Shown in pieces: positions 7,781 to 20,316 of a stretch of 64,000 bases of DNA (within the stretch, counting starts at the first letter, position 1; each line of letters opens with the position of its first letter). The stretch is taken from assembly GCA_038138625.1 (NCBI GenBank), contig JAYQEA010000003.1, forward strand, positions 14,269 through 78,268. Direction: 5' to 3'. The DNA is from Roseivivax sp. GTDB taxonomy: Bacteria; Pseudomonadota; Alphaproteobacteria; Rhodobacterales; Rhodobacteraceae. The position numbers were made by a program, and so were the translations under genes. The notes beneath the pieces were generated by a model. That model had not been told where the DNA came from, did no database searches, and saw only the letters and a program-made list of their open reading frames with translations.

Positions 7781-8758
7781 TCAGTCCTCAAGCAATGACA
7801 GGGCGTTGGCGAAGATGTTTGGGTCCACATTTCCACCCGAGATTGTGCAAATGACGGCGTCCCCTGTGATCTGATCGGCTTTGAAGAGCGCTGCGGCAAG
7901 GGCCACAGCACCACCGGGTTCTGCCACGACTTTTAACCTCAAAAACGCCAGCGCCATGGCGCGTAACGCCTGTTCATCACTGACAACCAACCCCGGACCG
8001 CATAGTCGGGCCATGACAGGAAAGGTGATATCCCCGGGAGAGGGCGTTAAAATCGCATCACACAGGCCGACGGCCTGTCCGGTGTTGTGCTGAATTTCCC
8101 CCGTGGCCAGCGACCGTGTGGTGTCATCAAATTTTTCCGGTTCGCAAGGGCGCACGCGCAGGCCGGGTGCCTCGGCCTCCAATGCAAGGGCGATGCCTGA
8201 GGTCAGCCCGCCACCGCCACAACAGACCAAAACATCCGCCGAAGTGACGCCCAGTTCAGCTGCCTGGGTGGCAATTTCAAGACCGGTTGTGCCCTGACCG
8301 GCAATCACCTGCGGTTCGTCATAGGGGCGGATCAAGGTCAGGCCACGGTCTGCTGCAAGGCGCTCTCCGATATCTTCGCGACTTTCTCCGCCCGCGCGAT
8401 CATATAGGACGACCTCTGCCCCAAGGGCGCGGGTGTTGGCGATTTTCAGTGCAGGTGCATCCGCCGGCATAATGATCACTGCCGGAATATCATGCTGACG
8501 GGCGGCCAACGCAACGCCTTGTGCGTGGTTGCCGCTGGAAAATGCCAAAACGCCTCTGCTGCGCATATCTGCATCCAATGCAGACACAGCCGACCACGCC
8601 CCTCTGAATTTGAAGCTTCCGGTGTGTTGCAGACATTCGGGTTTAATCAAAACCCGACGGCCTGCAATTTTATCCAGAAACGGCGATGTCAGCATCGGTG
8701 TGCGTCTGGCATGTCCCTCTAGCCGGGAAGCGGCGTCTTTGATCATGGTGATATTCAT
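7781..8758 (-). CDS. PLP-dependent serine/threonine dehydratase family protein (threonine ammonia-lyase / hydroxyaspartate dehydratase-like)
   Basis: It has the lysine motif HTGSFKFRGA, then SSGNHAQGVALAA and a GGGGL loop. A 2-nt gap separates it from the downstream gene and a 3-nt gap from the upstream gene. Confidence 0.8.
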   Translation of the reverse strand: MNITMIKDAASRLEGHARRTPMLTSPFLDKIAGRRVLIKPECLQHTGSFKFRGAWSAVSALDADMRSRGVLAFSSGNHAQGVALAARQHDIPAVIIMPADAPALKIANTRALGAEVVLYDRAGGESREDIGERLAADRGLTLIRPYDEPQVIAGQGTTGLEIATQAAELGVTSADVLVCCGGGGLTSGIALALEAEAPGLRVRPCEPEKFDDTTRSLATGEIQHNTGQAVGLCDAILTPSPGDITFPVMARLCGPGLVVSDEQALRAMALAFLRLKVVAEPGGAVALAAALFKADQITGDAVICTISGGNVDPNIFANALSLLED

Positions 8759-8761
8759 GGC

Positions 8762-9595
8762 TCAGGCCTGTGCTTTTAAAAGGTTTATCCACTGGCGTAG
8801 TGGTGCGAGGGCGTCGGCCTCATCCAAAAAGGGGACATGCCCACGATCCGCCACCTCGCCTGCAATCATATTGGGTGCGCGCCTTTGCATCTTGGCGAAG
8901 CAAGCGGGACTTAGTAGGTCCGAATTTTGTCCACGCACCGCACAGGTTGCAGGCAATCTGGCAAATGCATCAAAAAATGGCCACAGATCGGGCAGGGGCA
9001 GTGCTCCTGCTGCTTCCACAGCGTCGCGCAGACGAGGATCATAACTCAGCTGCAGACCCTCGGGGGTTTCGGTGTAGAAATGGGACACTTCTTGCGCCCA
9101 TCGCGTGGCTGGCACCCCAGCAAAACCAGCCATGACGCCCGGGCGTGCGGCGGCGGCCTCGGACAAAGTTTTCCACACTGGCGTTCGGCCCAGATAGTCC
9201 ATGATGGCGGTCATGCCTGCCCCATCCAGTTCTGGCCCGATATCATTCAGGGCGGCGCCAAGCAGGCGCTGGGGCATCATCGCTGCAAGCCCCATAGCGA
9301 TCAATCCCCCTCTTGAGGTGCCCAGAATTGCGGCCTTTTCCAACCCCAAGTGATCCAGTAATGCCAGGGCATCCTGACCTTCTTGCGGGATGGTGTAGGT
9401 TGCTGGATCTGCCCAGCCTGACTTGCCCCGGCCTCTGTAATCCAAACAAATCAGCCGGACGTCAGGAAAAAATGGCGCCATATAGGCAAAGTCGCGGTGG
9501 TCCCGGGTCAGTCCTGACAGGCAGAGAACCGGAAGCCCTGCGCCTTTATCGGTGTAATAAAGCTCAATCGCGTCGTTTGTCGTAAATGTGGGCAT
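8762..9595 (-). CDS. alpha/beta hydrolase
   Basis: The internal ATG at 9595 gives MPTFTTNDAIELYYTDKGAGLPVLCLSGLTRDHRDF, followed by YRGRGKS and GTSRGG. This ATG overlaps the upstream gene's stop (ATGA). The longer ORF extension reaching 9772 is Arg/Cys-rich and looks spurious. Confidence 0.7.
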   Translation of the reverse strand: MPTFTTNDAIELYYTDKGAGLPVLCLSGLTRDHRDFAYMAPFFPDVRLICLDYRGRGKSGWADPATYTIPQEGQDALALLDHLGLEKAAILGTSRGGLIAMGLAAMMPQRLLGAALNDIGPELDGAGMTAIMDYLGRTPVWKTLSEAAAARPGVMAGFAGVPATRWAQEVSHFYTETPEGLQLSYDPRLRDAVEAAGALPLPDLWPFFDAFARLPATCAVRGQNSDLLSPACFAKMQRRAPNMIAGEVADRGHVPFLDEADALAPLRQWINLLKAQA

Positions 9596-10278
9596 CAGGT
9601 AACCAAGTCCGGAATGGTGGTGAGGTCGCTGAGAACATGGGCAGGACGATGCGCGAGGCGATCCATGGGGTCGCCCGCACGGTTGACCCATGCTGTCTTG
9701 AACCCATAGCCGGTGGCGGCGGCGGCATCCCATCCATTTGACGACACAAACAGCACCTCGGATTCGAGACATCCAAGATGTGCGCCAACCAGATCGTATA
9801 CAATGCTAGCAGGTTTAAAGATGCCGACGTCCTCGACCGACAAAACAGCGTTTAACGATTCGCCAATGACGGCGCTTTCAACTGCGGCAGAAAGCATCTC
9901 TTTGCTACCGTTGGACAGGATGGCACATGTTTTGCCCATCGCGCGCAATTTGGCCAACATCATCGGAACCTCTCGATAAGCTTCCAGTTCCCAATAAAGT
10001 GCCAGCAAATCCTCGCGCAGGGCCAGATTGCCATGCAGCCCGTGTTTTTCCAGCGCCCAGTCCAGCCCATCCTGCGTGAGTTGCCAAAAGGGTTCATATT
10101 CGCCAGTGACCGCCCGCAGCCAGGAATATTGGAGTTGTTTCAGCCGCCAGTCCTCTGCCAGTGCCTGCCAGCAGGCGGCCAGCGCCTTTTGTCCCGGGCG
10201 CCCGGCCAGCTTGCGCGCGGCCGAGCCTACGTCAAACAAGGTGCCGTAGGCATCAAAGATACAGGTTGTGATGGGCAT
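9595..10278 (-). CDS. haloacid dehalogenase type II (HAD superfamily)
   Basis: MPITTCIFDAYGTLFDV carries the HAD motif I (DxYGT). SNG, a downstream Lys and the SSNGWD motif fit L-2-haloacid dehalogenases. I prefer the ATG at 10278 (AGGAG 7 nt upstream) to the one at 10284. Confidence 0.75.
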   Translation of the reverse strand: MPITTCIFDAYGTLFDVGSAARKLAGRPGQKALAACWQALAEDWRLKQLQYSWLRAVTGEYEPFWQLTQDGLDWALEKHGLHGNLALREDLLALYWELEAYREVPMMLAKLRAMGKTCAILSNGSKEMLSAAVESAVIGESLNAVLSVEDVGIFKPASIVYDLVGAHLGCLESEVLFVSSNGWDAAAATGYGFKTAWVNRAGDPMDRLAHRPAHVLSDLTTIPDLVT

Positions 10279-10727
10279 GGTCATGCTCCTGCATAAAATA
10301 GTGCTGAAACAGTGGCACGCGATGCGGATATCGGAAAGAGACAATCTGCATCTGACGCGCAGGATTGTGATGTGACTGACAAACATAGGCTCCACAATGT
10401 GACTTTTGACCCCTCCAGAGCCATGAAGATTATGATCTGTGAATTGGTGCAAAATTCCGTCTGGCGAGCAAATCTGCATCTGCCTGAAATTGTGCTGGAT
10501 ATATTTTCACCAAATGTACTATAGCCAAGATATTCGATCTGGCCGCTGCAGTCCTTTTTGATACACGCAGGTTGGCACCCGGTGATCCGGTCGACAAACG
10601 GGCGGAGACAGAGGGGCTCGTGGCAAAGACCGATACAGCAGGATCGTTGCGGAACAAAGTGCCATCCACGTATTTCGCAAACAGCACTGGTTAAATATAC
10701 GCACTTTGAAATTTGTGAGAATTCTAA

Positions 10728-13746
<3,019 letters not shown>

Positions 13747-14252
13747 TCAACCAACGTGTTCACTCACGTGCAGGATGCGCCATCGGTGCAACTTGGGCAA
13801 TCCTTGGATCGGCAATTTTGACACCAAGCCTCATGTATTTCTGGCGGCTAGGGTTTTGAAACGAGGTTTCCGTACAGCACTGACGCTTTGCGGTCCCTTG
13901 ATGCGGCTATTTTCATATATGGGAAAAACGTGGGGCATAGGGACCGGCGATGAAACAGATTTTGGTTTGGACATGCGGCTTGACTGCGAGCGTTCATTGA
14001 CCCCGCCCTAACATCTGCGGGACGCGGTCTTAGGTCCGCCATCGATAGCGGATATACGATTGGCCTCCACATAACTCTAAATAGAACTGAGTGAGTATGT
14101 TGGAAAGAAATTCTGACGGGATGGTTGTAGGCTACATTTTGAAGCAGTGTGTTGCCCGGAAAAGAGAGTATCGCGTATGCCAAGATCACTGGTGCGCAAC
14201 ATCATGAGGCCGCCCTGTCGCGAACACAACTTGGAATATTGGAGAATTACGA

Positions 14253-14996
14253 GTGGCCGATTACAGCCTCAATAGGCGCACTTTAATGTCACTCCTCCCC
14301 GTTAGTGTTTTCGGTTTGGCAAGCTGCGCCTCTGGTCAATCGTCATATGATCCACGCTTAGAAACAGACGCGCAGTTTCAAGCAATGGTGTTACGCAGGA
14401 TGCCCGACTATCGCTTAACATCCTCTATCACCGGGCGCGCTGTGGTGCGTTCGCCGGGATACGCGCTTATGGGTGTCAGGCGTGCTGATAGCCCTCAGAC
14501 TATTATCCGCGACTTCTTGGCTCAGTTTGAAAACACTGGACTGCGCGCAGTTGACCTTTATTTCGACCAAATCACTAGGCATGGCGATGCGTGGCGTGTG
14601 AGATTTCCAGGGTGTAGTTCGGGGGGATGTGTAAATGTTGCGCAGAATTTAGCCTTGGAGCAAGTTTCAGAAGAAGTGCATAATCGGTACCGTGCGGATC
14701 GAACCTCACTCGGGTTTAAAAAGCACGTGATAGCTGAAGCGACCCTTTCAGAGGTCGCTTACCAGGCTGAAGTATCTGTGGGTTATGACTATCGGGGCCG
14801 GGTTATTGGTTATCGAGTGAGAACCAACCGCGCGCCGATAAATGACGCGGAACGTGAATGGGTAAGGCGCAATGCCAGATCACGATTTTCTCATCCGGTT
14901 AATGTATTTCAATATTCACATAATCTCGCGCTTGGTGTGAGCGAATTTTATGATGACGGGCCTAGCATCGGTGGCAACAGTTCAAGGGGATTGTAA
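14253..14996 (+). CDS. hypothetical lipoprotein (possible Tat-type signal)
   Basis: The GTG start has GGAGA 8 nt upstream. The N-terminus MADYSLNRRTLMSLLPVSVFGLASCASG has a twin-Arg and the lipobox L-A-S-C. Third codon positions are AT-rich, unlike the neighbouring genes. I recognise no family. Confidence 0.55.
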   Translation: MADYSLNRRTLMSLLPVSVFGLASCASGQSSYDPRLETDAQFQAMVLRRMPDYRLTSSITGRAVVRSPGYALMGVRRADSPQTIIRDFLAQFENTGLRAVDLYFDQITRHGDAWRVRFPGCSSGGCVNVAQNLALEQVSEEVHNRYRADRTSLGFKKHVIAEATLSEVAYQAEVSVGYDYRGRVIGYRVRTNRAPINDAEREWVRRNARSRFSHPVNVFQYSHNLALGVSEFYDDGPSIGGNSSRGL

Positions 14997-14998
14997 TC

Positions 14999-15127
14999 AT
15001 GAGTTTTTGGGGTGGGGTATCCGATGCAATCAGCTCAGTCGCCGAAAGTATCGGAAATGCGATAAGTTCGATAGCGGAAGGAATCGGCAATGCAATTAGC
15101 GGTATTGAAAACTGGACGTCCAATTAA
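14999..15127 (+). CDS. 42-aa anionic micro-protein built from three 11-residue repeats
   Basis: The ATG lies 2 nt after the lipoprotein stop, with AAGGGGA 8 nt upstream. The product is MSFWGGVSDAISSVAESIGNAISSIAEGIGNAISGIENWTSN. Repeat units ESIGNAISSIA and EGIGNAISGIE share 8 of 11 residues, and 5 of those 8 are encoded by different synonymous codons. That pattern argues for selection on the protein. Confidence 0.45.
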   Translation: MSFWGGVSDAISSVAESIGNAISSIAEGIGNAISGIENWTSN

Positions 15128-15130
15128 TTT

Positions 15131-15274
15131 ATGGAACCGATGGGTAATACCCACGCAAGAATGATTGAAAAATTGTACTCCCAGAGCGTATCCCGAGGCA
15201 CTCTTATAATAAATCTACCAACAGGTGTTTTGTTATGCCTTGGCCTAATTGGGAACGCGTCCGAAGACGAATAA
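15131..15274 (+). CDS. 47-aa micro-ORF with one hydrophobic segment (speculative)
   Basis: The ATG lies 3 nt after the previous stop. The product is MEPMGNTHARMIEKLYSQSVSRGTLIINLPTGVLLCLGLIGNASEDE. There is no clear SD. The call rests only on the tight spacing and the TM-like stretch. Confidence 0.25.
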   Translation: MEPMGNTHARMIEKLYSQSVSRGTLIINLPTGVLLCLGLIGNASEDE

Positions 15275-15391
15275 TGAAACAGAATTCATTCCCGCAATGT
15301 CGCCAATCAATCTGTCACACAGGCAAAATTGCAGATTACATCCATTGAATGGAGTAACCCGTACCCATCACGACGATTCATTCAGCGGCTC

Positions 15392-17061
<1,670 letters not shown>

Positions 17062-17065
<4 letters not shown>

Positions 17066-17319
17066 TCGAGACACGCGATACGCGGCTGCGACGACTAAGA
17101 ATGCGATCCATGCGGCGCGGTATAAAGGAAATGGATATTATCTTGTCGACCTATGCGGCGGTCCGGCTTGATAAGATGACCGAAGAAGAACTGGTCGCCT
17201 ACGATGCGTTGCTGTCCGAAAACGATCAGGATTTGTATCAGTGGGTGTCCGGGCAGCGGTCTGCCCCAGACGACGTGATTAAGATAATCAAAGATATCGC
17301 AAAAACGGTAGAAAAATAA
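17062..17319 (+). CDS. sdhE: succinate dehydrogenase assembly factor 2 / FAD assembly factor SdhE
   Basis: The 85-aa ORF reads RLRMRSMRRGIKEMDIILSTYA...EEELVAYDALLSENDQDLYQWVSGQ, the Sdh5/DUF339 pattern. Confidence 0.8.
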
Positions 17320-17408
17320 ACAGCATTTTAGTCAGCTGCGTATCGCTTAACCGGTTGTTTCGTTTTTTTGCAGAAGTTGCATCAAAGCGAAACTTTACGG
17401 AGATACGA

Positions 17409-17906
17409 ATGAGCATACACACCCCCCTAGGTCAATCTACCCATCATGGGTTCATGGCTGGATATCTAGACAGCCTCGCGCTGGTTGAGCGGTTGCACCG
17501 ATTGTTACTTGACGTGATCAAAGACGAATTTGAGCGGGTTGGGATCATCGATATCAACGCTGTGCAGGCCCTGTTGCTGTTTAATGTAAGTGACAATGAA
17601 GTCACGGCAGGCGAACTGAAAACGCGCGGCTACTACCAAGGCTCTAACGTTAGCTACAATCTCAAAAAACTTGTTGATATGGGCTACATGCATCATCAGC
17701 GATGCGAAATTGATCGCCGGTCCGTCCGGGTGCGCTTGACCGAAAAAGGGCGCAACATCCGTGACATTGTCGATTCGTTATTCCAACGTCACGCCAATGG
17801 CATCGAAACCCGCGGTGTTCTGGATACCGACGGATTGGATAGTATTGCCGGATCGCTGCGCCGTCTTGAACGATACTGGACAGAACAAATCCGCTATATT
17901 TACTAA
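17409..17906 (+). CDS. MarR-family winged-helix transcriptional regulator
   Basis: GGAGA lies upstream of the ATG at 17409. The winged-helix core reads VTAGELKTRGYYQGSNVSYNLKKLVDMGYMHHQRCEIDRRSVRVRLTEKG. Confidence 0.7.
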   Translation: MSIHTPLGQSTHHGFMAGYLDSLALVERLHRLLLDVIKDEFERVGIIDINAVQALLLFNVSDNEVTAGELKTRGYYQGSNVSYNLKKLVDMGYMHHQRCEIDRRSVRVRLTEKGRNIRDIVDSLFQRHANGIETRGVLDTDGLDSIAGSLRRLERYWTEQIRYIY

Positions 17907-18109
17907 TGCGTACTTGATACGCCTTGGGACAAGAACTGTCCCGTTACAATAAGATCAAGACCCAAGTAAGATCCGACCCCCCCTTACCGTTGAGCATATT
18001 AAGGGTCTAAAACCTGCGGTATAAAGACAGCGATTAGGCAACCGATGCCTTTCGTCTTGCATACTCGACCAAGAGTCCCCCAAAATTGTAAGTGGTGCCC
18101 CGCTTGGTT

Positions 18110-18811
18110 TCAGCGCGCGCCGATCAGCAGCCCGCCGATTTCGCGCAATAACTTGCGTCGCATGGCTGCCTCATACCCCTCATACCCTACTGCGGTTTCA
18201 ACAAATGCACCAAGACCATGTTGGACCTCGTCAACATAGTAGTCCACGACCTTTGGATCGGCACCAAGTACAGCCAAACCGTTTACCGTAACGCCGTCAA
18301 ACGGAAAGTGGCGATATGCATGACGCGGCTCAAAGCCATCGTTACCGATCCCATCCCCTGAAACGTCAATGACCCGTCGCTTGCACGGCGGCGCGCTTTG
18401 CAACAGCACGGCACCCTGTCCAAGCGCAGGTCCAATCGCGGTCGGGAATGTATCATAACTTCGGGTGGTCATCCGAAGTTGATCCGCAGCAGCCTTAATA
18501 GCCACGTCATCCACCAACAGCGTCCAGTCCAGAATCATCACTATCTGGTTTTGACCACTCCACTCGTAAGCCGCCAACGCTACGGGGTGCGCGCCGTCAC
18601 TCAGGATGGATCGCGTCACCTCCGGGGCTTCCAGTGCAGCGGCCAGCCCATCCCTTTGAAGAATATACTCCTCGGCATCTACCGAGGATGACACGTCCAA
18701 AGCCAAGAGCAACGCCAGATCGCAATCCGCAGCCGCAGAGCTGCACAGCCCGACCGCAAGAAAAGCCGCGCGCAGTGTTACCAATGGCCCGTGTTTGGCA
18801 TCGAACTCCAT
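18110..18811 (-). CDS. DUF1194 (vWA-like) domain protein, secreted
   Basis: A signal-like N-terminus is followed by DLALLLALDVSSSVDAEEY (a vWA MIDAS-like motif) and DVSGDGIGNDG. The ATG at 18811 overlaps gloA by 34 nt. An alternative TTG start at 18784 (TTGGTAA overlap with the gloA stop) is plausible. Confidence 0.7.
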   Translation of the reverse strand: MEFDAKHGPLVTLRAAFLAVGLCSSAAADCDLALLLALDVSSSVDAEEYILQRDGLAAALEAPEVTRSILSDGAHPVALAAYEWSGQNQIVMILDWTLLVDDVAIKAAADQLRMTTRSYDTFPTAIGPALGQGAVLLQSAPPCKRRVIDVSGDGIGNDGFEPRHAYRHFPFDGVTVNGLAVLGADPKVVDYYVDEVQHGLGAFVETAVGYEGYEAAMRRKLLREIGGLLIGAR

Positions 18812-19206
18812 GGTTCGGACGGAGGCAGCGCATCACCTGCCTGCAAAAGCTCTATCGATACATTATCTGGCGAACGAACAAATGCCATATGACCGTCGCG
18901 GGGCGGGCGGTTGATGGTAACACCGTTGTCCATAAGCAACTGACACATGGCGTAAATATCATCCACAGCATAGGCAAGGTGGCCAAAGTGTCGACTGTCT
19001 GACGGAAGTCCGTCGTCGCCGTCCCAGTTATATGTCAATTCCAGCGGGCAGTCCTCTTGACCCTCAGGCGCCATGAAAATCAGCGTAAAACGTCCCTTTT
19101 CGCTGTCTGTCCTTCGCGTTTCGCGCAACCCGAGCAGAGCGTAGAAGGCCATCGAGGCCTCTAGGTCCTTAACGCGGACCATCGTATGTAGATAGCGCAG
19201 AGCCAT
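18778..19206 (-). CDS. gloA: lactoylglutathione lyase (glyoxalase I, VOC family)
   Basis: It reads MALRYLHTMVRVKDLEASMAFY...LELTYNWD...FGHLAYAVDDIY...DGHMAFVRSPDNVSIELLQ. Confidence 0.85.
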   Translation of the reverse strand: MALRYLHTMVRVKDLEASMAFYALLGLRETRRTDSEKGRFTLIFMAPEGQEDCPLELTYNWDGDDGLPSDSRHFGHLAYAVDDIYAMCQLLMDNGVTINRPPRDGHMAFVRSPDNVSIELLQAGDALPPSEPWSSMPNTGHW

Positions 19207-19410
19207 GATGTGATCCTTTTCATAATCTCAAGAGTTGCCACCTTAGCCGGTGACGGGCAGTTGTCGAGTATGATTATTGCCCGATGTCCTTGGTGTATCC
19301 GGTGCAACAGGTCAGCGCCTGAAAAGACAGAGCTGATCTACCCAACCCCATGAAAGGCGGATATGACAGGTCAGAACTGCAACCTGCTGCCACCACAAAG
19401 GACTGCCACC

Positions 19411-20316
19411 ATGCCCCTGACCCCAGAACAAGAGGCCGAGATATCGGCGTTACGCACCACGTCTCAGCCAACTTTGCGCGCGGTGTCTGTGGGGATGGAA
19501 GCGCATCTGTATAAAGCGCATCAGGTTTTGGACCACGGCTTTGTGCGCGTCATTGATTATATGGGCGATGATGCTGCGATTTGTCAGGCTGCGCGTGTAT
19601 CCTATGGCAAGGGGACCAAGTCTGTTCAGAACGACGAAGGCCTGATCCGGTATCTCATGCGGCACTGGCATTCTACCCCGTTCGAGATGTGCGAAGTCAA
19701 GCTGCACGTCAAACTGCCGGTCTTTGTTGCGCGGCAGTGGATCCGGCACCGGACAGCCAATGTGAACGAGTACTCGGCGCGGTATTCAATCCTGGACAGG
19801 GAGTTCTACATTCCCCAAGCTGATGCCTTGGCAGCGCAAAGTGTGGTCAACAATCAGGGCCGCGGTGAGGTGCTGCAGGGCGAAGAAGCTGCGCGTGTTC
19901 TACGCTATCTGCGTGATGATGCAATGACGGCCTATGATCATTACGAGGCTATGATTTCGCAAGATGGGCAGCAGGGGTTGGCACGTGAACTGGCGCGTAT
20001 GAACCTGCCTGCAAATATCTATACGCAATGGTATTGGAAGGTCGATCTACACAATCTGCTGCACTTCTTGCGCCTGCGCGCGGATGCCCATGCCCAGTAC
20101 GAAATCCGTGTCTACGCAGACGCCATCTGCGCGATCGTCGCGGATTGGGTGCCGTTTGCGTATAAAGCCTTCGAGGATTATCGCCTTGGTGGGGCCGTGC
20201 TGTCAGCAACCGCGCTAGAGGCCGTGCGGCGTATGCTGAAGGGCGAAGAGGTCACACAGGAAAATTCCGGCATGTCCAAAGGCGAATGGCGCGAATTTAT
20301 GGCGGCGCTAAAGTGA
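19411..20316 (+). CDS. thyX: FAD-dependent thymidylate synthase
   Basis: It carries the ThyX motif [15 protein letters not shown] (RHRxxSxxxxS) plus [11 protein letters not shown] prefer the ATG at 19411 (MPLTPEQ); the ORF opens at 19363. Confidence 0.9.

Follow-up and report, generated by a model that had tools for sequence, protein, structure and literature searches.

The window analysed here, 64,000 nucleotides of a Roseivivax sp. contig (JAYQEA010000003.1, positions 14,269 to 78,268), contains an AT-leaning interval between the genes pgm and aspartate aminotransferase. Within this interval lies a gene encoding a 247-aa lipoprotein, followed by what we read as the remains of a second, smaller gene, which we call the partner. 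The interval holds a small two-gene module that appears to be horizontally acquired. An earlier note on this DNA had described the lipoprotein and three open reading frames (ORFs) packed behind it, of 42, 47, and 24 aa (hereafter ORF 42, ORF 47, and ORF 24); all four are present, at 14253-14996, 14999-15127, 15131-15274, and 15274-15348 (Table 1). The AT bias that it reported is real but mild (49.2% GC in 13732-15391 versus 54.5% for the window), and codon usage does differ from that of the neighbours: GC at third codon positions is 47% in the lipoprotein gene, 59% in pgm, and 65% in the aminotransferase gene. The 395 nt located 3' of the lipoprotein gene, at 44.6% GC, belong to the lowest 1% of 400-nt windows.

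Table 1. Features of the pgm-aminotransferase interval in window coordinates
Feature	Position	Strand	Remarks
Lipoprotein gene	14253-14996	+	247 aa; GTG start; intact; rare family without description
Conserved N-terminal block (part of the left arm)	14253-14457	+	RR signal peptide, lipobox, and mature N-terminus to VVRSPG
Allelic cassette	14458-14987	+	C-terminal ~180 residues of the lipoprotein
ORF 42	14999-15127	+	Codons 1-42 of the partner; begins 2 nt past the lipoprotein stop
In-frame TAA	15125-15127	+	Truncates the partner; Asn at the equivalent site of intact homologues
ORF 47, first 13 codons (MEPMGNTHARMIE)	15131-15169	+	Putative remnant of the partner motif W..N(I/F)xNPIGxTLS
ORF 47, remainder	15170-15274	+	Includes the 'transmembrane (TM)-like' stretch; without relatives
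ORF 24	15274-15348	+	ATG overlaps the preceding TAA; other frame; no support beyond being open
Upstream leader	14172-14252	+	Moves with the lipoprotein gene; homology of loci in other contexts begins here; GGAG ~8 nt 5' of the GTG
pgm	12100-13731	-	Left flank of the AT-leaning interval
Aspartate aminotransferase gene	15392-16594	-	Right flank of the AT-leaning interval

The lipoprotein, its allelic cassettes, and its contexts

The lipoprotein begins MADYSLNRRTLMSLLPVSVFGLAS-C, and its GTG start is backed by an ATG at the equivalent position in a contig from the same locus (L009). The N-terminus, MADYSLNRRTLMSLLPVSVFGLASC, carries an RR motif in LNRRTLMSLL, to be compared with the twin-arginine consensus (S/T)RRxFLK, and an L-A-S-C lipobox (...VSVFGLAS-C25-ASG; Cys25 at 14325-14327), the latter bearing out the lipobox recognised earlier. 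Among close relatives, 90% or more keep the Cys, and some distant family members have a plain hydrophobic anchor in place of the lipobox. Likewise, the RR pair is kept in close relatives and missing in many distant members, and the twin-arginine translocation (Tat) profile PF10518 scores in only 1 of 36 family members.

The earlier note could not assign the protein to a family, and neither could we: Pfam, NCBIfam, PHROG, and PADLOC gave no family match, and sequence searches of the PDB with two lipoprotein profiles gave none either. Only 20 relatives (98-53% identity, including proteins from Thioclava), all of them unnamed or 'hypothetical', came out of 5.8 billion proteins in a word-indexed search. 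When 1.84 billion representatives were searched exhaustively with a profile, 54 family proteins emerged at E<=0.001; nearly all measure 200-260 aa and have a signal or anchor at the N-terminus. A metagenome scan added only a degraded fragment (L010). Family motifs are MPxYxLT, VVRSPG, FPGCxxGxC, YxAxVxVxYDxxGRVxxYxV..R, ER..A, and NLxLG, the last but two and the last also written YDYxxR and NLALG. G120, C121, and C126, all in FPGCxxGxC, are the only invariant residues, F118 and G96 are nearly invariant, and none of the invariant residues is of a catalytic type. The AlphaFold (AF2) model, built on a 47-sequence alignment, is confident (predicted local distance difference test, pLDDT, 87.9; predicted template-modelling score, pTM, 0.81), yet the predicted structure matches no solved one. 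Foldseek was run twice against PDB and once against BFVD, with E<=0.001 as the threshold for a match; the best hit of this model in PDB reached E=0.1 with a query template-modelling (TM) score <=0.17, and an earlier model of pLDDT 72 reached E=0.04 in BFVD. An NTF2/SnoaL-like fold appeared among weak Foldseek matches only (probability <=0.38, TM <=0.18), which we did not count as evidence.

Eight further contigs carry the same locus (L004, L005, L009, L015-L019). Both the pgm and the aminotransferase flanks are seen in the window, L004, L009, L015, and L017, and the aminotransferase side only in L005, L016, L018, and L019. Contigs that are otherwise ~99% identical differ in the C-terminal ~180 residues of the lipoprotein, which are swapped for versions with protein identities of 80% or 55%. 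Over window 8286-19581, L004 is 98.2% identical, and 133 of its 200 differences fall into 14300-15099 (125 into 14300-14999), over a background of about 0.6%. L009 differs from the window at 51-59 positions per 100 nt in the cassette and at 0-6 in the flanks; similarly, the flanks of L009, L016, and L017 are 95.7-99.4% identical to the window and their lipoproteins only 55%. Flanks of ~99% identity around protein versions of 55% identity place this locus among the sharpest within-species polymorphisms.

The edges of the exchange are equally sharp. BLAST matches break at 14458/14464, in the VVRSPG codons, and at 14987/14999, in the last lipoprotein codons and the partner start, which leaves a left recombination arm at 14172-14457 and a right arm from 14987 to ~15100 (the partner start). 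The N-terminal block shows 90-97% DNA identity in L004, L006, L009, L011, L016, and L017, whichever C-terminal version follows. Within the cassette, the ratio of non-synonymous to synonymous substitution rates (dN/dS) is 0.14-0.29 and dS is 0.7 or saturated. With dN/dS of about 0.2, the lipoprotein is functional and held by purifying selection, and the cassette versions are old, functional, and exchanged by recombination through the two conserved arms; they are not the outcome of hypermutation.

Several other sources of diversity were considered. A diversity-generating retroelement does not fit, as the window holds no second copy of any part of the gene, the differences spread over 540 nt, and dS is saturated. 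Hypermutation is rejected on saturated dS, low dN/dS, and the absence of repeats, and conversion from silent cassettes is, as far as the window shows, disfavoured on the same grounds: neither a second copy nor a silent cassette of the lipoprotein gene occurs in the 64-kb window, and no DNA repeats flank the cassette. Tandem Repeats Finder detects no 33-nt tandem DNA repeats that could serve as a slippage site, and the right end lacks an inverted repeat of the kind expected of an integron cassette or attC-like site.

Two side observations concern these alignments. In the metagenome scaffold L015, a stretch of Ns coincides exactly with the junction of cassette and partner (L015:3848-3948), which suggests that the assembler broke on versions co-existing in the sample; because the scaffold gap sits at this junction, L015 was left out of the evidence on allele linkage. 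In addition, L009 diverges from the window by 0-6% per 100 nt near the locus and by 10-25% from about 16700 (window 16700-17240). The genomes are thus mosaic, and recombination may also have brought in the tract of low divergence that surrounds the cassette.

At least 7 different contexts harbour the lipoprotein gene, with or without its partner, and the two stand together in unrelated contexts in L006, L011, L013, L025, and L027. In the oyster pathogen A. crassostreae CV919-312 (L006; NZ_LKBA01000019.1), the lipoprotein gene and an intact partner of 100 aa (L006:3764-6771) have insertion sequence (IS) integrase genes with the rve domain on both sides, an arrangement that looks composite-transposon-like; only window 14240-15116 is shared with this locus, at 94% identity. 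An IS element is located upstream and grxD-bolA-purL downstream in L008 and L014 (rve in L008), L011 has an IS5-type transposase (rve) downstream, and L013 has an IS-like helix-turn-helix (HTH) ORF upstream, which was called by eye without a Pfam run. In L027 (L027:1125-4433), a family member of 31% identity lies ~1 kb from tRNA-Thr and adjoins a fragment of the phage-integrase family, a setting reminiscent of a small genomic island; a T6 run marks the frameshift in its partner-like ORF. Further contexts are cupin-hutU (P0016), yebC (L012), a CoA-transferase gene (L025), and a small multidrug resistance (SMR) pump gene (L026). Together with IS elements, the lipoprotein gene has spread across genera, A. 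crassostreae among the recipients, and degraded copies exist as well (a frameshift in L008, fragments in L010, a split gene in P0016).

Thioclava offers a different arrangement. Here, tandem lipoprotein paralogues, 52-56% identical to the window protein and separated by 30-nt spacers, lie between a TraB/GumN gene and groES, three in strain L04-15 (L002:6001-8296) and two in T. marina (L001:6001-7520); no partner gene was found at these arrays. For loci in other contexts, homology to the window begins at 14172 (L011), 14231 (L013), or 14240 (L006), and ends at 15100-15116 by DNA and at ~15170 by protein. Whether the block travels as a unit, as the earlier note asked, can be answered with yes for the lipoprotein gene and the 5' end of the partner; ORF 24 and most of ORF 47 are outside the moving block.

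A partner gene in pieces

ORF 42 and ORF 47 lie in one frame, separated by the TAA and one codon, and a one-pass translation of 14999-15274 reads ...AISGIENWTSN*FMEPMGNTHARMIE... ORF 42 itself consists of MSFWGG and three 11-residue repeats (AISSVAESIGN / AISSIAEGIGN / AISGIENWTSN). Elsewhere, the lipoprotein gene is followed 2-60 nt downstream by a longer gene of the same start: an intact partner of 100 aa in A. crassostreae (L006), one of 77 aa in L011, and, beside a lipoprotein that shares just 35% identity with that of the window, an intact one of 115 aa (L025). A similar downstream repeat ORF, frameshifted, is found in L027, where the lipoprotein is 31% identical. ORF 42 shares 86% identity with the start of the 100-aa ORF and 83% with that of the 77-aa ORF. 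In tblastn against the window, the L006 partner aligns over residues 1-51 (76% identity, E=1e-27) and the L025 partner over residues 32-86 (E=8e-12), both ungapped across the TAA. Because intact partners align ungapped across the stop, the tight spacing of the small ORFs is the mark of a decayed gene.

Homology between the two intact partners extends over 91 residues (38% identity, E=6e-19), and after the repeats both have W..NI(I/F)NPIG(D/N)TLS..F(Q/E)GS..AD.LS...QAI. The first 13 residues of ORF 47 correspond to INPIGDTLSGIFQ / FNPIGNTLSELFE of these partners. Past ~15170, neither ORF 47 nor ORF 24 shows similarity to partner C-termini (permutation p>=0.3); ORF 47 'IINLPTG...SEDE' and ORF 24 'CRQ' looked suggestive by eye as a partner C-terminus and were rejected at the same p>=0.3. 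We conclude from these comparisons that ORF 42 and ORF 47 represent fragments of one partner gene of ~100 aa that appears to be dead in the window, and that 15170-15274 is probably non-coding read-through. Family searches of all four ORFs produced only weak tape-measure matches, for ORF 42; no ORF attained a curated Pfam or NCBIfam threshold, and PHROG and PADLOC gave nothing convincing. Large-database searches with the L006 and L025 partners retrieved no relatives, probably because such ORFs are short, repetitive, and rarely called, and for this reason the partner family was assembled by hand from the loci.

Comparison of the same-locus contigs points in the same direction. The TAA at 15125 is present in every contig aligned over it (L004, L005, L009, L015, and L017), and seven contigs (L004, L005, L009, L015, L016, L017, and L019) carry a 1-nt deletion at 15076, inside ORF 42. 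In other contexts the partner has lost its start codon and acquired indels (L013), or only 'SFW' is left (L008 and L014). Given that same-locus DNA is 99-100% identical over 15100-15390, the retention of ORF 47 and ORF 24 at this locus is uninformative; both are absent from the loci in other contexts (L006, L008, L011, L013, and Thioclava). Only two substitutions were seen in ORF 47, both in L009 and both non-synonymous (L->R, N->T), and the former places an Arg inside the hydrophobic stretch. The TM-like segment to which the earlier note had drawn attention probably belongs to the non-coding read-through. ORF 24 has no family match in Pfam, NCBIfam, PHROGs, or PADLOC and is a chance ORF; there is no evidence for a gene.

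The beginning of the partner behaves differently. Its 34-residue N-terminus is nearly unchanged between the window, L006, and L011, and comparison of the window with L011 in frame gives 7 synonymous versus 1 non-synonymous changed codons over 34 codons. This synonymous bias implies that the N-terminus of the partner was, or still is, protein-coding. The partner gene starts in a slippery run (ATGAGTTTTTGGGGTGGGG in the window, 14999-15015; a T6 run in L027, 3040-3060, and in L013), and several of the interruptions of the partner frame map to such runs or close to them. Phase variation was considered as a possibility.

The proposal of three tightly packed, translationally coupled micro-ORFs consequently gives way to one frame interrupted by a stop, an ORF 42 frameshifted in relatives, and an unsupported 24-aa ORF. 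What survives is a small partner that begins 2-4 nt behind the lipoprotein stop, as one gene of 77-115 aa and not as three separate peptides. At the pgm-aminotransferase interval itself, the lipoprotein is kept intact in relatives and the expected conservation of ORF 42 breaks down in seven contigs. For annotation, the case illustrates that a string of micro-ORFs crowded together after a genuine gene may be what is left of a single gene, and that frame continuity and distant homologues quickly settle such strings.

Proposed function and rival explanations

Our overall explanation combines an acquired module, a selected and polymorphic lipoprotein, a dead ~100-aa partner with ORF 42 and ORF 47 as its fragments, a chance ORF 24, and a functional proposal; we put its probability at roughly 0.55. 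The functional proposal on its own is tentative and drawn by analogy: a periplasm-facing, binding or immunity-like lipoprotein might act against a tape-measure-like, membrane-active partner. The ancestral partner was a cytoplasmically made protein of ~100 aa with an MSF start, 11-residue repeats of small residues and Ile, and a C-terminal NIxNPIGxTLS..F.GS..AD.LS motif. The lipoprotein would be a non-enzymatic binding protein facing the periplasm, and the Ala at +2 would, by E. coli rules, direct it to the outer membrane. It could neutralise a membrane-active protein of tape-measure-like or glycine-zipper-like character, be it its own partner or similar proteins delivered by competitors or phages. 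Neutralisation of this kind would explain why the lipoprotein is retained and diversified, why its genes stand in tandem, and why the partner has gone missing time and again.

Envelope-acting effectors, pore-forming or lipase, are known to be countered by immunity proteins located at the outer membrane, such as Sip6 for the pore-former Ssp6 and the lipoprotein Tli1 for Tle1 (PMC6889166). Similar to these, the lipoprotein described here is exported, membrane-anchored, and apparently non-enzymatic, and the adjacent small partner has no signal peptide. Retention and strong between-strain diversity of the lipoprotein, partner-free tandem copies in Thioclava, frequent partner loss, association with mobile DNA, and a tape-measure-like partner together form a pattern resembling that of envelope immunity genes and their toxins. 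In contrast to these systems, the lipoprotein resembles no known immunity family in sequence or fold, its gene comes first, the junction with the partner is conserved and does not co-vary, and there are no delivery genes nearby. No type VI secretion system genes are among the neighbours identified and no effector family matches, which sets the locus apart from the effector-immunity pairs of that system.

The likeness to tape-measure proteins rests in the 11-residue repeats of the partner, which are rich in Gly, Ala, and Ser with Ile or Phe at i, i+3, and i+7; the repeat region alone matches many tape-measure families, PHROGs among them (phrog_1535, E=2e-6; phrog_58, E=3e-5; PHROG 991 also). 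However, the partner measures 77-115 aa compared to 600-2000 aa, no phage structural genes lie nearby, and the match perhaps reflects repeat composition only. A second comparison leads to the Cdz system of Caulobacter, in which the contact-dependent glycine-zipper bacteriocins CdzC/CdzD are accompanied by the exporter CdzAB and by CdzI (PMC5380434). Both systems involve small alphaproteobacterial proteins of zipper-like repeats of small residues, linked to a protective membrane-associated protein. In contrast to Cdz, there is one partner and not two, the protective candidate is a 247-aa lipoprotein, and there is no sequence match; CdzI is an inner-membrane protein. Type I exporter genes are present in none of the loci fetched, which keeps the locus out of the Cdz class.

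Polymorphic toxin loci (CdiA-CT/CdiI, Rhs, SitA of Myxococcus) share with this locus a conserved N-terminal part, a sharp switch (here at VVRSPG), a variable C-terminus, and a small gene directly after. Unlike in those loci, the C-terminal versions of the lipoprotein are mutually homologous, alignable end to end, carry the same motifs, and have dN/dS of about 0.2; no toxin domain was detected in them, so the locus does not class as a polymorphic toxin, and the first 34 partner codons are conserved across lipoprotein versions and do not co-vary as those of an immunity gene. Closer in behaviour are allelic-replacement loci, such as the central domain of flagellin, Borrelia OspC, and Neisseria TbpB/fHbp, where ancient divergent versions have sharp recombination edges in near-identical genomes. 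The protein family is unrelated to these, and the gene described here also moves between sites with IS elements. Overall, the behaviour of the locus is that of known loci of allelic replacement or orphan immunity, and the two protein families of which it is made are unnamed.

Several points weigh against our overall explanation. Among the contigs, none showed the pgm-aminotransferase site empty, and acquisition here is deduced from composition and the other contexts. Taken alone, the first 13 residues of ORF 47 are only modestly significant (permutation p 0.003-0.02). ORF 42 has a good Shine-Dalgarno sequence (AGGGGA) and, in the window, an intact and conserved N-terminus of 34 residues, which means that a truncated peptide could still be made. 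No secretion or delivery-system genes are among those identified adjoining the locus. The partner start next to the cassette is conserved and does not co-vary, unlike what a cognate toxin-immunity interface would predict. Finally, the tape-measure similarity may be convergent, since the region is repetitive, compositionally biased, and below the Pfam cut-off (PF09718, Tape_meas_lam_C, E=0.007-0.06).

Two rivals keep a role for the small ORFs. The view that the window holds a four-gene, translationally coupled operon, with the lipoprotein and three functional micro-peptides of 42, 47, and 24 aa as a toxin/immunity or envelope-effector module, draws on the fact that none of the four ORFs is interrupted, that each follows the last after 2-3 nt or overlaps it at TAATG, that ORF 42 has its Shine-Dalgarno sequence, and that ORF 47 and ORF 24 are kept in all same-locus contigs. 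Given that this retention is uninformative in near-identical DNA, that homologues read through the stop splitting the shared frame of ORF 42 and ORF 47, that ORF 42 is frameshifted in seven contigs, that neither ORF 47 nor ORF 24 accompanies the module in any other context, that both ORF 47 substitutions are non-synonymous, and that no convincing ribosome-binding site is visible 5' of ORF 47 or ORF 24, we consider such an operon very improbable. A milder version treats only the sequence downstream as junk and the truncated 42-aa product as a functional, small amphipathic protein that works with the lipoprotein. The near-identity of its 34 N-terminal residues with 7 synonymous versus 1 non-synonymous changes, the Shine-Dalgarno sequence and start 2 nt past the lipoprotein stop, and the natural variation in partner length (77, 100, 115 aa) speak for it. 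Yet most same-locus contigs are frameshifted inside ORF 42 alongside an intact lipoprotein, which makes ORF 42 dispensable in this population; moreover, the C-terminal motif common to L006 and L025 is missing, and the synonymous bias perhaps records past constraint only. We regard a functional 42-aa product as improbable.

A further rival concerns the lipoprotein itself, which might be an exposed envelope protein, for example the receptor of a phage or a surface antigen recognised by the oyster or another host, with frequency-dependent selection by phages or hosts keeping old versions and the partner acting as a dispensable helper in export or anchoring. Sharp-edged cassettes in one species with saturated dS and low dN/dS would fit this explanation, and loci of the flagellin, OspC, and TbpB type show the same sharp-edged alleles. 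The 94%-identical copy in the oyster pathogen A. crassostreae and the outer-membrane sorting predicted from the Ala at +2 argue in the same direction. By contrast, the tandem paralogues of Thioclava and the frequent pseudogenes (L008, L010, P0016) better fit accessory defence or immunity genes than a housekeeping receptor, and linkage to a partner without signal peptide across 31-35% identity is left unexplained; we hold the surface-antigen explanation to be possible but on balance unlikely. It overlaps with the immunity explanation, as both predict frequency-dependent selection. A bolder and rather doubtful extension is that the lipoprotein and the ~100-aa tape-measure-like partner constitute an undescribed two-gene system of antagonism or protection, of which the window would be an 'immunity-only' survivor. 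In such a system, a new membrane-active toxin could be paired with a lipoprotein immunity protein of new fold, or the lipoprotein could block phage DNA entry via tape-measure-like segments, and ancient, recombining specificity cassettes would be kept in roseobacter populations. If true, such a toxin-immunity or phage-exclusion role would define a new family of interbacterial or phage defence in marine Rhodobacterales and would explain how the cassettes are maintained.

Leader, neighbouring genes, and minor observations

The leader that moves with the lipoprotein gene is likely to hold its promoter and 5' untranslated region, with the GGAG as a candidate Shine-Dalgarno sequence. No sigma-70 consensus occurs on the plus strand at the leader, promoter and terminator scans gave no signal above shuffled expectation, and Rfam and tRNA scans found nothing relevant, only a chance match to a CRISPR repeat (E=0.95). 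A gap of 521 nt separates pgm from the lipoprotein gene, and in it the plus strand has a 115-aa ORF, a possible gene (window 13664-14011), part of which is annotated in L015 and L017 as a 78-aa gene without recorded Pfam match.

Neighbours at the same locus are MatE, pgm, aminotransferase, HTH protein, Sdh5, MarR, DUF1194, glyoxalase, ThyX, and LepA genes. The XRE-type HTH gene and the Sdh5/SdhE-family gene overlap by 4 nt (window 16628-17319), occur together in all contigs fetched, and probably form an operon unrelated to the lipoprotein. On the other side, the MatE transporter gene (plus strand) and pgm (minus strand) are convergent, and their 3' ends overlap by 8 nt at window 12100-12107.

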